A stretch of 64,000 nt of DNA from Escherichia coli (GCF_003018115.1 NZ_CP027457.1), one strand, 5' to 3'. Counted from the stretch's first letter, positions 18,001 through 33,000 are shown. Program-made: the numbers.

Positions 18001-21000
18001 CTCCGTAATTGGCAAGACAAACGAGTATATCAGGCATTGGATGTGAATAAAGCGTATAGGTTTACCTCAAACTGCGCGGCTGTGTTATAATTTGCGACCT
18101 TTGAATCCGGGATACAGTAGAGGGATAGCGGTTAGATGAGCGACCTTGCGAGAGAAATTACACCGGTCAACATTGAGGAAGAGCTGAAGAGCTCCTATCT
18201 GGATTATGCGATGTCGGTCATTGTTGGCCGTGCGCTGCCAGATGTCCGAGATGGCCTGAAGCCGGTACACCGTCGCGTACTTTACGCCATGAACGTACTA
18301 GGCAATGACTGGAACAAAGCCTATAAAAAATCTGCCCGTGTCGTTGGTGACGTAATCGGTAAATACCATCCCCATGGTGACTCGGCGGTTTATGACACGA
18401 TCGTCCGTATGGCGCAGCCATTCTCGCTGCGTTACATGCTGGTAGACGGTCAGGGTAACTTCGGTTCCATCGACGGCGACTCTGCGGCGGCAATGCGTTA
18501 TACGGAAATCCGTCTGGCGAAAATTGCCCATGAACTGATGGCCGATCTCGAAAAAGAGACGGTCGATTTCGTTGATAACTATGACGGCACGGAAAAAATT
18601 CCCGACGTCATGCCAACCAAAATTCCTAACCTGCTGGTGAACGGTTCTTCCGGTATCGCCGTAGGTATGGCAACCAACATCCCGCCGCACAACCTGACGG
18701 AAGTCATCAACGGTTGTCTGGCGTATATCGATGATGAAGACATCAGCATTGAAGGGCTGATGGAACACATCCCGGGGCCGGACTTCCCGACGGCGGCAAT
18801 CATCAACGGTCGTCGCGGTATCGAAGAAGCTTACCGTACCGGTCGCGGCAAGGTATATATCCGCGCCCGTGCTGAAGTGGAAGTTGACGCCAAAACCGGG
18901 CGTGAAACCATTATCGTCCACGAAATTCCGTATCAGGTGAACAAAGCGCGCCTGATCGAGAAAATTGCGGAACTGGTAAAAGAAAAACGCGTGGAAGGCA
19001 TCAGCGCGCTGCGTGACGAGTCTGACAAAGACGGGATGCGCATCGTGATCGAAGTGAAACGCGATGCGGTCGGTGAAGTGGTGCTCAACAACCTCTACTC
19101 CCAGACCCAGTTGCAGGTTTCTTTCGGTATCAACATGGTGGCATTGCACCATGGTCAGCCGAAGATCATGAACCTGAAAGACATCATCGCGGCGTTTGTC
19201 CGTCACCGCCGTGAAGTGGTGACCCGTCGTACTATTTTCGAACTGCGTAAAGCTCGCGATCGTGCTCATATCCTTGAAGCATTAGCCGTGGCGCTGGCGA
19301 ACATCGACCCGATCATCGAACTGATCCGTCATGCGCCGACGCCTGCAGAAGCGAAAACTGCGCTGGTGGCTAATCCGTGGCAGCTGGGCAACGTTGCCGC
19401 GATGCTCGAACGTGCTGGCGACGATGCTGCGCGTCCGGAATGGCTGGAGCCAGAGTTCGGCGTGCGTGATGGTCTGTACTACCTGACCGAACAGCAAGCT
19501 CAGGCGATTCTGGATCTGCGTTTGCAGAAACTGACCGGCCTTGAGCACGAAAAACTGCTCGACGAATACAAAGAGCTGCTGGATCAGATCGCGGAACTGT
19601 TGCGTATTCTTGGTAGCGCCGATCGTTTGATGGAAGTGATCCGTGAAGAGCTGGAGCTGGTTCGTGAACAGTTCGGTGACAAACGTCGTACTGAAATCAC
19701 CGCCAACAGCGCAGACATCAACCTGGAAGATCTGATCACTCAGGAAGATGTGGTAGTGACGCTCTCTCACCAGGGCTACGTTAAGTATCAGCCGCTTTCT
19801 GAATACGAAGCGCAGCGTCGTGGCGGGAAAGGTAAATCTGCCGCACGTATTAAAGAAGAAGACTTTATCGACCGACTGCTGGTGGCGAACACTCACGACC
19901 ATATTCTGTGCTTCTCCAGCCGTGGTCGCGTCTATTCGATGAAAGTTTATCAGTTGCCGGAAGCCACTCGTGGCGCGCGCGGTCGTCCGATCGTCAACCT
20001 GCTGCCGCTGGAGCAGGACGAACGTATCACTGCGATCCTGCCAGTGACCGAGTTTGAAGAAGGCGTGAAAGTCTTCATGGCGACCGCTAACGGTACCGTG
20101 AAGAAAACTGTCCTCACCGAGTTCAACCGTCTGCGTACCGCCGGTAAAGTGGCGATCAAACTGGTTGACGGCGATGAGCTGATCGGCGTTGACCTGACCA
20201 GCGGCGAAGACGAAGTAATGCTGTTCTCCGCTGAAGGTAAAGTGGTGCGCTTTAAAGAGTCTTCTGTCCGTGCGATGGGCTGCAACACCACCGGTGTTCG
20301 CGGTATTCGCTTAGGTGAAGGCGATAAAGTCGTCTCTCTGATCGTGCCTCGTGGCGATGGCGCAATCCTCACCGCAACGCAAAACGGTTACGGTAAACGT
20401 ACCGCAGTGGCGGAATACCCAACCAAGTCGCGTGCGACGAAAGGGGTTATCTCCATTAAGGTTACTGAACGTAATGGTTTAGTGGTTGGCGCGGTACAGG
20501 TAGATGACTGCGACCAGATCATGATGATCACCGATGCCGGTACGCTGGTACGTACTCGCGTTTCGGAAATCAGCATCGTAGGCCGTAACACCCAGGGCGT
20601 GATCCTCATCCGTACTGCGGAAGATGAAAACGTAGTGGGTCTGCAACGTGTTGCTGAACCGGTTGACGAGGAAGATCTGGATACCATCGATGGCAGTGCC
20701 GCGGAAGGGGACGATGAAATCGCTCCGGAAGTGGACGTTGACGACGAGCCAGAAGAAGAATAATTTTACTTCTTCATGCCAAAAGGGAGCTATCTCCCTT
20801 GTTTGAATTGAAAAGTCCAGGCTGCAAAGTCTGGGCTTTTGTCGTATTAGGGCACGGTAAAGTTTGGCTGTGCCCGTAAAAAATGGCTGGCTATACACAA
20901 GGAATGTTGCAATGAGTGGTGAAAAAAAGGCGAAAGGCTGGCGGTTCTATGGTCTTGTAGGTTTTGGCGCAATAGCACTGCTTTCCGCTGGCGTCTGGGC

Positions 21001-30000: not shown

Positions 30001-33000
30001 CCAGCGCCAGTTCACGGACGCTATCAGGTGTATATCAACTACTATGGCGGACGCAGCGAAACGGAATTAACCAGCGCCCAACTGACGCTGATCACCGATG
30101 AAGGATCGGTCAATGAGAAACAGGAAACATTTATTGTACCGATGCGTAATGCTGGCGAGCTGACGCTGGTGAAAAGTTTTGACTGGTGATCCATCCCTTC
30201 ACACAACCTGGCTCTTTCTTTTTTCAGATAAGACTGCTGGGCGATCTGCCGACGCCAGGATATAACCATTAACAAGCGTCGGCAGATTGGTCATTTCTTA
30301 TTTTTCGTACTGAGAACTGTCCATTTACTCCGGCTTTCCTGGTTAAGGCAATGGTTTCTAAGCGATACGCATTATTGCAATGGTGACAGAACATTGCGGT
30401 AACACGCTTTTACCGCTACCTTAACCACACTCCATCGGTCACCTGAGGCGGAGCTTCGCCCCTTTGAAATACCTTGCTTCTTTTCGTACAACCCTGAAAG
30501 CCTCGCGCTACATGTTCAGAGCATTGGCGTTAGTGCTCTGGCTGTTGATTGCTTTTTCATCCGTTTTTTACATCGTTAATGCGTTACATCAGCGAGAATC
30601 GGAAATTCGTCAGGAATTTAATCTGAGTTCCGATCAGGCTCAGCGCTTTATTCAACGCACCTCTGATGTGATGAAAGAGCTGAAGTACATCGCCGAAAAT
30701 CGCTTATCGGCAGAAAACGGTGTGCTTTCCCCGCGTGGACGAGAAACGCAGGCGGATGTGCCTGCGTTTGAACCGCTGTTTGCCGACTCCGATTGTTCCG
30801 CAATGAGTAACACCTGGCGAGGTTCTCTGGAGTCATTGGCGTGGTTTATGCGCTACTGGCGCGATAATTTTTCTGCGGCTTACGATCTCAACCGGGTATT
30901 TTTAATCGGCAGCGATAACCTCTGCATGGCCAATTTCGGTCTGCGTGATATGCCAGTGGAACGCGATACCGCGTTGAAAGCGTTGCATGAACGCATCAAT
31001 AAATATCGAAATGCACCACAAGATGATAGCGGCAGTAACCTCTACTGGATCAGCGAAGGTCCGCGCCCTGGCGTCGGGTATTTTTACGCGTTGACGCCAG
31101 TTTATCTGGCGAACCGGTTGCAGGCGCTTTTGGGTGTCGAGCAGACCATCCGGATGGAGAACTTTTTCTTACCGGGTACGTTGCCGATGGGGGTTACCAT
31201 TCTTGATGAAAATGGTCATACCCTGATTTCGCTTACCGGACCAGAAAGCAAAATTAAGGGCGATCCTCGCTGGATGCAGGAACGCTCCTGGTTTGGCTAT
31301 ACGGAAGGTTTCCGGGAGCTGGTGCTGAAGAAAAATCTGCCTCCCTCATCGCTAAGCATCGTTTATTCGGTGCCGGTTGATAAGGTGCTGGAACGCATTC
31401 GCATGTTGATCCTTAACGCAATTTTGCTGAATGTGCTTGCCGGAGCTGCATTGTTTACTCTCGCGCGGATGTACGAGCGGCGTATTTTCATTCCGGCGGA
31501 AAGCGACGCCCTGAGACTGGAAGAACATGAGCAGTTTAACCGCAAGATTGTCGCCTCCGCGCCAGTGGGTATCTGTATTTTGCGTACCGCTGATGGCGTC
31601 AATATTTTAAGTAACGAACTGGCGCATACCTATCTCAATATGCTTACGCATGAGGACCGCCAACGGCTGACACAAATTATCTGTGGGCAGCAGGTCAATT
31701 TTGTTGATGTCCTGACCAGCAACAATACCAATCTGCAAATCAGCTTCGTCCATTCGCGCTATCGTAATGAAAACGTGGCCATTTGTGTGTTGGTGGATGT
31801 TTCTTCGCGCGTGAAGATGGAAGAGTCGTTGCAGGAGATGGCACAAGCAGCGGAACAGGCGAGCCAGTCAAAATCGATGTTCCTTGCCACCGTCAGTCAT
31901 GAGCTGCGAACGCCGCTGTATGGCATTATCGGTAACCTGGATCTGTTGCAAACCAAAGAGTTACCGAAAGGCGTCGATCGACTGGTGACGGCAATGAACA
32001 ACTCTTCCAGCCTGTTGTTGAAAATTATCAGCGATATTCTCGATTTCTCGAAGATTGAATCGGAACAGTTGAAGATCGAACCGCGTGAGTTTTCACCGCG
32101 TGAAGTGATGAACCACATCACCGCCAACTATTTACCGCTGGTGGTACGCAAGCAGTTAGGCTTGTACTGCTTTATTGAACCGGATGTGCCAGTGGCCTTA
32201 AATGGCGACCCGATGCGTTTACAGCAGGTCATCTCCAACCTGTTGAGTAACGCCATAAAATTCACCGATACCGGCTGTATAGTTTTGCATGTCCGCGCTG
32301 ATGGCGATTATCTCTCTATCCGTGTTCGCGATACCGGCGTGGGGATTCCGGCGAAAGAAGTGGTGCGCTTGTTTGATCCCTTCTTCCAGGTCGGAACGGG
32401 CGTACAGCGAAACTTCCAGGGGACCGGTCTGGGTCTGGCGATTTGTGAAAAACTGATCAGCATGATGGACGGCGATATCTCGGTAGATTCAGAACCGGGA
32501 ATGGGCAGTCAGTTTACCGTGCGTATTCCGTTGTATGGCGCTCAGTACCCGCAGAAAAAAGGCGTGGAAGGGTTGAGTGGTAAACGCTGCTGGCTGGCGG
32601 TCCGCAATGCGTCGCTCTGTCAGTTCCTGGAATCCAGTTTGCAGCGCAGCGGCATCGTCGTAACAACATACGAAGGGCAGGAACCGACTCCCGAAGATGT
32701 GTTAATCACTGATGAGGTAGTGAGTAAAAAATGGCAGGGCAGAGCGGTAGTGACCTTCTGTCGTCGACATATTGGTATTCCGCTGGAGAAAGCGCCAGGG
32801 GAGTGGGTACACAGTGTGGCTGCTCCGCATGAGCTACCGGCATTGTTGGCGCGTATTTATTTAATCGAGATGGAGAGCGACGATCCTGCTAACGCTCTGC
32901 CGTCGACGGACAAAGCGGTCAGCGATAATGACGATATGATGATTCTGGTCGTGGATGATCATCCGATTAACCGACGTCTGCTGGCAGATCAGTTGGGATC

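Follow-up and report, generated by a model that had tools for sequence, protein, structure and literature searches.

The closest described system to the locus reported here is the magABCDEF operon of Pseudomonas aeruginosa (PA4492-PA4487; PMC3735191, PMC5764988), in which MagD is a periplasmic, inner-membrane-associated alpha-2-macroglobulin (A2M) that binds MagA, MagB and MagF 1:1 (PMC5764988). MagB, the only Mag protein with a transmembrane (TM) helix, is required for the membrane localisation and stability of MagD and for its cleavage from a 165-kDa to a 100-kDa form (PMC5764988). The bait of MagD comprises residues 847-853 (ANRSERG), and MagD with a tobacco etch virus (TEV) protease site in this bait was cut by TEV protease, which stayed bound non-covalently (PMC5764988). 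The mag operon, under Gac/Rsm regulation (PMC3735191, PMC12663445), protects P. aeruginosa from peptidoglycan-targeting effectors of type VI secretion systems (T6SS), and deletion of magD sensitises the cells to two such effectors, VgrG3 and Tae1 (PMC12663445). The present analysis was done on the five genes yfaA-yfaT-yfaS-yfaQ-yfaP at positions 20912-30189 (plus strand) of a 64,000-nucleotide window of Escherichia coli (NZ_CP027457.1, GCF_003018115.1), and all coordinates, which are on the plus strand for the features described, are positions in this whole window.

The yfa operon is already known and near-universal in E. coli, and its orthologs have been studied for more than a decade. We consider it probable (roughly 0.8) that the locus is the E. 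coli Mag ortholog, a type II bacterial A2M complex, the products of which are all exported and protect the periplasm and the cell wall.

Gene structure and orthology to the mag operon

According to the listing of open reading frames (ORFs) and the direct reading of their junctions, the five genes are intact, co-directional and free of internal stops, namely yfaA (20912-22600, ATG start, 562 amino acids), yfaT (22597-23220, ATG start, 207 amino acids), yfaS (23154-27758, ATG start, 1534 amino acids), yfaQ (27759-29408, GTG start, 549 amino acids) and yfaP (29413-30189, ATG start, 258 amino acids). The yfaA/yfaT junction is an ATGA overlap, yfaT and yfaS overlap by 67 nt provided that yfaS begins at the ATG at 23154, the GTG of yfaQ abuts the TAA stop of yfaS, and yfaQ is spaced from yfaP by 4 nt (tgct). 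The gene names, the tight packing of five intact genes and these junctions agree with an earlier reading of the window from its sequence (hereafter the original prediction). The ORFs are not chance ORFs, because they are long and have full-length Pfam matches; the domain annotation, which had been proposed as a check, gave DUF2138 for YfaA, DUF1175 and NlpC/P60 for YfaT, MG2, A2M_BRD, A2M and bMG10 for YfaS, two DUF2300 matches and SpoIID for YfaQ, and DUF2135 for YfaP.

By pairwise blastp, YfaA, YfaT, YfaS, YfaQ and YfaP were 46%, 75%, 54% (over the full length), 53% and 52% identical to their one-to-one best matches MagB through MagF, respectively, and YfaP was 39% identical to MagA, a paralog of MagF (41% identity). 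On these alignments the locus is the E. coli ortholog of P. aeruginosa magBCDEF, the "type II" A2M complex without a thioester. The two operons share the five families in the same order, overlapping junctions, an A2M core without the thioester cysteine, and predicted signal peptides on four products, the DUF2138 protein having a predicted single TM helix instead. Exactly one hydrophobic segment, which is N-terminal, is present in every Yfa product, in agreement with the SignalP and TM-helix predictions published for MagA-F (PMC3735191), and the proposed targeting of every product to the envelope was thus supported.

The gene order was conserved well beyond E. coli. A YfaS homolog with 4290 cluster members is encoded in a locus flanked by gatCAB and mreB with the order YfaP_C, DUF2138, MagC, A2M, DUF2300/SpoIID and YfaP_C, which is the layout of magABCDEF of P. 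aeruginosa (PMC3735191). The same five families were found in the same order in Pseudomonas (the P. aeruginosa-type locus and P. citronellolis), Yersinia and Superficieibacter, and the yfa gene order also in a metagenome-assembled genome at 33% identity (L010) and in a partial contig (L009); the order of the partners around the A2M gene was conserved in loci L003, L005, L006, L007 and L010. P. aeruginosa has the extra magA, unlike E. coli with its five genes, and the five-gene form without magA was shared by E. coli, Yersinia, Superficieibacter and L010. No YfaP-like gene was found between gyrA and yfaA in the window locus, which therefore does not have the six-gene layout; magA is a lineage-specific addition and not a defining part of the Mag-type operon. 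The chromosomal context of the operon differs among E. coli, Yersinia, Superficieibacter and Pseudomonas (gyrA/rcsC for yfa, gatCAB/mreB for Pseudomonas mag), which is what one would expect of a module that spreads by horizontal transfer.

From the junctions and the conserved gene order we infer that the five yfa genes are co-transcribed and translationally coupled, in support of the operon put forward in the original prediction. Overlapping or tight junctions are also kept in such loci outside E. coli, which supports the co-translation of a stoichiometric complex.

By analogy with the Mag proteins, YfaA would lie in the inner membrane through one N-terminal helix and would tether and stabilise the periplasmic macroglobulin YfaS, and YfaP would be an accessory subunit that binds YfaS. 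YfaS, being without a thioester, would cage its target only non-covalently after cleavage at the conserved bait TNRSERR. YfaT, which is NlpC/P60-like, and YfaQ, with its penicillin-binding and SpoIID-like folds, would tie the system to peptidoglycan, and the complex would guard the periplasm and the cell wall against incoming hydrolases, that is, proteases and the peptidoglycan-degrading effectors of competitors. This model draws on the present analysis for the gene structure, the orthology, the domains and folds, the degeneration of the thioester site and the conservation of gene order; complex formation, membrane anchoring, non-covalent trapping and T6SS-effector protection are taken from the ortholog work, the E. 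coli proteins being assumed to act like their Mag orthologs and the five genes to form one transcript. The function of the operon had been called poorly understood, which is partly outdated, as the Mag complex has been dissected biochemically (PMC3735191, PMC5764988), the structure of MagC is available (7BK8), protection by mag against the T6SS has been reported (PMC12663445) and a phenotype of yfaQ in E. coli has been described (bioRxiv 10.1101/2025.02.11.637708).

A role in defence against phages, which is backed only by the broad notion of an "immune" module in the envelope, is extremely improbable: none of the five Yfa proteins was matched in PADLOC-DB at E <= 0.01, and all of them are periplasmic proteins with folds related to the cell wall, in which no nuclease, nucleoside triphosphatase or abortive-infection domain was found by Pfam.

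The macroglobulin YfaS and its thioester site

YfaS was analysed in two halves and by motif alignment. It has two cysteines, C25, within the predicted signal peptide, and C1189, in the mature chain, and the C-x-E-Q motif was not found anywhere in the 1534-residue translation, both as predicted. The site homologous to the G-C-V-E-Q of relatives is the degenerate G1068-G-V-I-N1072 (26355-26369), which aligned with PYGCLEQT of E. coli YfhM and with PYG-C-V-E-Q-T of many close relatives, so that the thioester Cys, Glu and Gln are all replaced. P. aeruginosa MagD keeps GGVEQ, whereas the GGVIN of YfaS is fully degenerate. The earlier statement that YfaS cannot trap proteases in the way of thioester A2Ms holds only for covalent capture, since the 54%-identical MagD traps a protease non-covalently once its bait has been cut (PMC5764988).

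Among the YfaS homologs of at least 1300 amino acids within the 120 best, the motif was CVEQ in 31, GVEQ in 20, SVEQ in 1, GVIN in 19 and GVVN in 8, and that of the P. aeruginosa-type MagD was GGVEQ. The C-terminal 535 residues of YfaS, when searched against 1.84 billion cluster representatives, gave 202 matches, and most of the full-length ones carried an intact G-C-[VIAT]-E-Q. Three proteins with the intact motif were examined for their context (L007 of P. citronellolis, L009 and L010), and all three lay in yfa/mag-type operons. In a neighbour-joining tree of the family, which is crude and without support values, the enterobacterial GV[IV]N proteins formed one clade, the Pseudomonas clade mixed CVEQ and GVEQ, and members without the cysteine were scattered elsewhere. 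The motif distribution and the tree suggest repeated loss of the thioester from a thioester-bearing ancestor in the yfa/mag family. The second class of bacterial A2Ms has been described as being without the thioester motif, or without the cysteine altogether (PMC5764988, PMC3735191); the equation of type II with the absence of a thioester appears too broad, because many proteins of the same operon type keep CVEQ and the lack of CxEQ does not define the Mag operon type. The thioester-keeping operon of P. citronellolis (L007) has the same partner families in the same order as yfa, together with a magA-like sixth gene, and macroglobulins of this kind are 54-56% identical to YfaS with the same flanking motif PYG-xxxx-TASRLLPLS; those of the P. 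citronellolis type, with their intact G-C-V-E-Q, may still form a covalent thioester, which YfaS cannot.

The type I A2Ms, represented by E. coli YfhM/ECAM and Salmonella SaA2M, share with YfaS the macroglobulin (MG) domains, the bait-region domain, a homolog of the thioester domain and bacterial MG10, and are periplasmic proteins at the inner membrane, as is predicted for YfaS; in both cases the gene is coupled to that of a peptidoglycan enzyme, or putative enzyme, of two domains. YfaS and YfhM, however, are only about 22% identical, over 278 amino acids, and YfhM has CLEQ where YfaS has GVIN, so that the CxEQ of type I is missing from YfaS. YfhM has been reported as a lipoprotein (PMC3735191 describes a lipobox Cys for the class), in contrast to YfaS, the signal of which is predicted to be of the signal peptidase I type. 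The partner of type I is pbpC, which in K-12 adjoins yfhM elsewhere on the chromosome, whereas the neighbours of yfaS are yfaT and yfaQ.

The domains detected in YfaS by Pfam were MG2 (residues 344-440, E = 3e-19), the bait-region domain A2M_BRD (661-806, E = 2.5e-17), A2M (871-953, E = 4e-12) and bacterial MG10 (about 1409-1517, E = 1e-5), and the sequences of the PDB gave only weak matches, to MG domains of complement C5 and CD109. The bait-equivalent segment TNRSERR (residues 851-857, 25704-25724) was aligned with, and is nearly identical to, the MagD bait ANRSERG. In the homolog sequences this segment was conserved across the family and not hypervariable, which argues against a broad-spectrum trap and bears on the proposal that the operon is a colonisation factor, a mimic of host alpha-2-macroglobulin that neutralises host proteases such as neutrophil elastase in the periplasm. 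The conformation of MagD does change with human neutrophil elastase and mag transposon mutants are attenuated in a rat model of chronic infection (PMC3735191), and the bait region of MagD is cut by chymotrypsin, trypsin and papain (PMC5764988). The family, however, occurs commonly in Pseudomonas of soil and plants as well as in environmental metagenomes, and a clean loss-of-function phenotype has so far been seen only against T6SS effectors of bacteria (PMC12663445), so we regard a colonisation factor as unlikely.

The ATG at 23154 has a Shine-Dalgarno sequence, GGAAGGA, 6 nt upstream and agrees with the start that follows from the extent of the pseudogene feature annotated for yfaS in K-12 (b4500); with no other start would YfaS carry a signal peptide like that of its homologs. 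In the RefSeq/PGAP annotation of strain F9792, the closest genome (locus L002 8545), yfaS starts at a GTG 30 codons downstream (1504 amino acids), so that the signal peptide is lost and yfaT and yfaS are separated by 23 nt; this start looks like a systematic mis-call. The shorter form of 1504 amino acids is carried by a database cluster of 40,950 members. Residues 1-38 (23154-23267), with the hydrophobic segment, are the predicted signal peptide, with a predicted signal peptidase I site between ANA and DD; this region contains Cys25, shares its DNA with the 3' end of yfaT, read in a different frame, and aligned with the signal peptides of the homologs, the N-termini of which all end in A-x-A just before [DE][DE]xLP. 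I-A-A-C25 formally fits the lipobox pattern, but a lipoprotein was judged less likely than cleavage between ANA and DD, since the homologs are without the Cys and share the A-x-A site. A conserved "MDTQRF..HWHLS" at the N-terminus of some YfaS homologs may be an echo, in the other frame, of the conserved C-terminus of YfaT.

Among public E. coli assemblies, YfaS-YfaQ and YfaQ-YfaA fusions and many truncated YfaS forms (959, 999 and 1367 amino acids) were met (hits P0037, P0040, P0057 and P0135-P0137). They presumably represent strain-specific frameshifts, deletions or assembly artefacts.

Partner proteins and their relation to peptidoglycan

YfaA consists of a periplasmic body (Pfam DUF2138) behind an N-terminal TM anchor (about residues 11-35), which is its sole TM segment. 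In NCBIfam only the YfaA equivalog was matched, the other matches being noise far below the cut-off. YfaP has a predicted signal peptide (..VAHS before E) and a C-terminal DUF2135/YfaP_C domain (Pfam DUF2135, E = 5e-16). When compared by sequence with the PDB, YfaA, YfaQ and YfaP gave nothing meaningful.

YfaT, with a predicted signal peptide (..VAHS before E), was matched by Pfam to DUF1175 (E = 1e-57) and weakly to NlpC/P60 (E = 0.0015), and to the crystal structure of P. aeruginosa MagC (PDB 7BK8, E = 2e-103). Cys55, His148 and His160 lie in motifs that resemble the catalytic surroundings of NlpC/P60 enzymes, as judged by eye rather than by alignment to a reference enzyme. PMC10318531, with reference to Zouhir 2021, describes DUF1175/MagC as lacking catalytic activity but binding peptidoglycan. 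YfaT has 75% identity with MagC of P. aeruginosa and with its Yersinia counterpart, and the other four Yfa proteins are 46-58% identical in the same comparisons. Judged by sequence identity, the NlpC/P60-like YfaT is the most constrained part of the system.

YfaQ has a predicted signal peptide (..TLA before EE) and gave two DUF2300 matches and a SpoIID match by Pfam; residues of about 24-245 have a penicillin-binding/beta-lactamase fold and those of about 312-445 (with E334) are SpoIID-like. The AlphaFold model, made with 32 homologs, had a mean pLDDT of 86.9 and was matched by Foldseek to beta-lactamases and to penicillin-binding protein 3 (PBP3) with E of about 4e-6, SpoIID being also among the fold matches. 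In this model the order of secondary structures in residues 24-245 (DSSP, compared by eye) looks like that of the penicillin-binding fold. No PDB sequence was found with the profile of the N-terminal domain, and this fold is supported only at the level of structure. The positions S60-x-x-K63, at the start of the helix 59-72, S108-C-G110, K195-T-W197, on the strand 192-201, and E334, in the SpoIID motif, are kept even in a homolog of 33% identity, and eight Cys of YfaQ are invariant. The distances between S60, S108 and K195 are similar to those in class D enzymes. A bipartite reading of E. coli YfaQ, transpeptidase-like and SpoIID-like, has already been published (bioRxiv 10.1101/2025.02.11.637708). 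Deletion of yfaQ in E. coli gave wider cells and a phenotype like that of cell-wall genes, clustering with the mepK, mepS and nlpI mutants (bioRxiv 10.1101/2025.02.11.637708).

Such features could mean that the operon is mainly a machine for the remodelling or maintenance of peptidoglycan, with YfaQ, through its penicillin-binding fold and its SpoIID-like fold of the lytic transglycosylase kind, and YfaT acting on the wall and YfaS as a scaffold or regulator instead of a trap for foreign enzymes. The invariance of S60-x-x-K63, S108, K195-T196 and E334 of YfaQ down to 33% identity, its fold matches to SpoIID and to PBPs and beta-lactamases, and the retention of Cys55, His148 and His160 in YfaT are in line with such a machine, as is the yfaQ deletion phenotype, which was obtained in K-12 in spite of its yfaS pseudogene; the gene of the type I A2M, too, has a peptidoglycan synthase gene, pbpC, as its partner (PMC5764988). 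On the other hand, the classification of MagC as inactive speaks against enzymes at work, enzymatic activity has been shown for no partner, and the magD deletion phenotype is specific to incoming effectors that target peptidoglycan (PMC12663445). The patchy distribution, at loci that differ between genera, is also more in keeping with an accessory than with a housekeeping function, and a peptidoglycan machine was accordingly judged rather unlikely.

The small C-terminal domain of YfaQ (residues 446-549; a helix, three strands and two helices) carries an invariant H520-E-Y-L-H524. In residues 520-549 (29316-29408), D535-E536 and E540, after the HExxH, are invariant too. It is a possibility, raised by this motif, that the domain is a metallopeptidase that processes the macroglobulin; its profile gave only spurious matches to angiogenin among PDB sequences and nothing in NCBIfam, hence no link to a known metallopeptidase. 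A more far-reaching proposal, which we hold to be distinctly unlikely, is that the module was ancestrally thioester-bearing and lost the thioester many times, that YfaS is a cleavage-activated scaffold or cage on peptidoglycan, and that the HExxH domain of YfaQ/MagE cuts the bait; YfaT and YfaQ would then position YfaS on the peptidoglycan. The grounds for this are motif conservation, the predicted order of secondary structures and the crude neighbour-joining tree. If the thioester was lost repeatedly, the fixation of GV[IV]N in the enterobacterial clade would mean that the system can do without covalent capture and that its conserved task is another one, and a bait-cutting metalloprotease would explain the altered processing of MagD on deletion of magE in P. 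aeruginosa.

Distribution in E. coli, expression and significance

The original prediction had set a full-length YfaS of 1534 amino acids against a split pseudogene in K-12, and this was confirmed with one correction. In K-12 MG1655 yfaS is annotated as the pseudogene b4500 with the same length of 4605 nt, and the window gene, aligned without gaps, was 98.15% identical to it. Codon 1368 (27255-27257) is TGG (Trp) in the window and TGA in K-12 MG1655, and this is the sole lesion of the reading frame in K-12, a nonsense codon and not a frameshift. The differences from K-12 were 85 nt for yfaS (18 amino acid replacements and the stop), 29 nt for yfaQ (6 amino acids), 17 nt for yfaP (5 amino acids) and 2 nt for yfaT (1 amino acid), and being mostly synonymous they indicate purifying selection.

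A 9.8-kb region with the operon was matched in 5425 of the 5426 complete E. coli genomes, a single match covering at least 80% of it in 5177 of them, and the protein cluster of the intact YfaS holds 40,950 member sequences; yfaQ occurs in about 98% of 131,610 surveyed E. coli genomes (bioRxiv 10.1101/2025.02.11.637708). An intact yfaS is the normal state of E. coli, not special to the window, and K-12 is the exception.

As a separate observation, yfaA differed from K-12 by 5.0% of its nucleotides (84/1689; 19 amino acids), compared with 0.3% for yfaT and 1.8-2.2% for yfaS, yfaQ and yfaP, and the G+C content of the yfaA region (20912-22600) was lower, 0.49 versus 0.53-0.55, so that the segment beside gyrA may be an allelic or recombinant one.

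Upstream of the operon, between gyrA (18136-20763) and yfaA, is a leader of 148 nt (20764-20911) with three strong hairpins (fold of -53.7 kcal/mol, z = -4.0). The second hairpin (about 20811-20841) is a classic A-tract/stem/U-tract terminator after gyrA; the terminator scan of the leader gave one terminator-like site, at 20783-20800. AAGGA lies 8 nt before the ATG of yfaA. Promoter-like sites inside the operon were fewer than in shuffled sequence, and yfaA may be expressed by read-through or from an unrecognised promoter. Downstream, a perfect 12-bp inverted repeat with a 20-nt loop and a U-rich tract (30244-30287), 55 nt after the yfaP stop, is a candidate terminator of the operon (fold of -38.3 kcal/mol, z = -3.9), although not called by the terminator scan. 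No Rfam match was found within the operon.

Several points weigh against a protective Mag-type complex in E. coli. No consensus sigma-70 promoter was detected upstream of yfaA by the promoter scan, and the leader has its three hairpins. YfaQ-msfGFP gave no signal in K-12 (bioRxiv 10.1101/2025.02.11.637708), so that expression in the laboratory may be very low. In P. aeruginosa, MagE was recovered in the cytoplasmic fraction although it has a signal peptide (PMC3735191), and the phenotype of the yfaQ deletion in K-12, despite the yfaS pseudogene, means that YfaQ may act independently of the macroglobulin. E. coli is also without magA.

The absence of a consensus promoter in the scan and of a YfaQ-msfGFP signal, together with the K-12 nonsense codon in yfaS, the many truncated or fused variants in databases and the fully degenerate thioester site, could also be taken to mean that the E. 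coli operon is a silent, decaying relic without a current function. This is very unlikely in view of the presence of the operon in all but one of the complete E. coli genomes, the dominance of the intact form with its 40,950 members, the mostly synonymous differences from K-12, the conservation of motifs across genera and the phenotype of the yfaQ deletion (bioRxiv 10.1101/2025.02.11.637708).

Beyond the operon, the atoSCDAEB genes, which in K-12 lie between yfaP and rcsC, were absent from the window (30190-30463), where yfaP is directly followed by rcsC (30464-33313). This ato-less yfaP-rcsC junction is common to 1536 of the 5426 complete E. coli genomes (28%), O157:H7 strains included, and about 195 nt (30191-30385) are specific to it. 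An Rfam match to naRNA4 (nucleoid-associated non-coding RNA 4; 33313-33389, 70.4 bits) starts at the last base of rcsC.

The window locus is a standard intact E. coli copy and in itself adds nothing new to the picture of bacterial macroglobulins, around which a small periplasmic "immune" system is built. As a natural mutant of yfaS, K-12 is the wrong strain for testing this system, and an E. coli strain with an intact yfaS allele could be used to test the protection against T6SS effectors reported for P. aeruginosa. The apparent repeated loss of the thioester within one operon type is a point about the family and not special to the YfaS of the window, and, together with the intact catalytic-type motifs of YfaQ, it offers targets for mutation at the level of the family.

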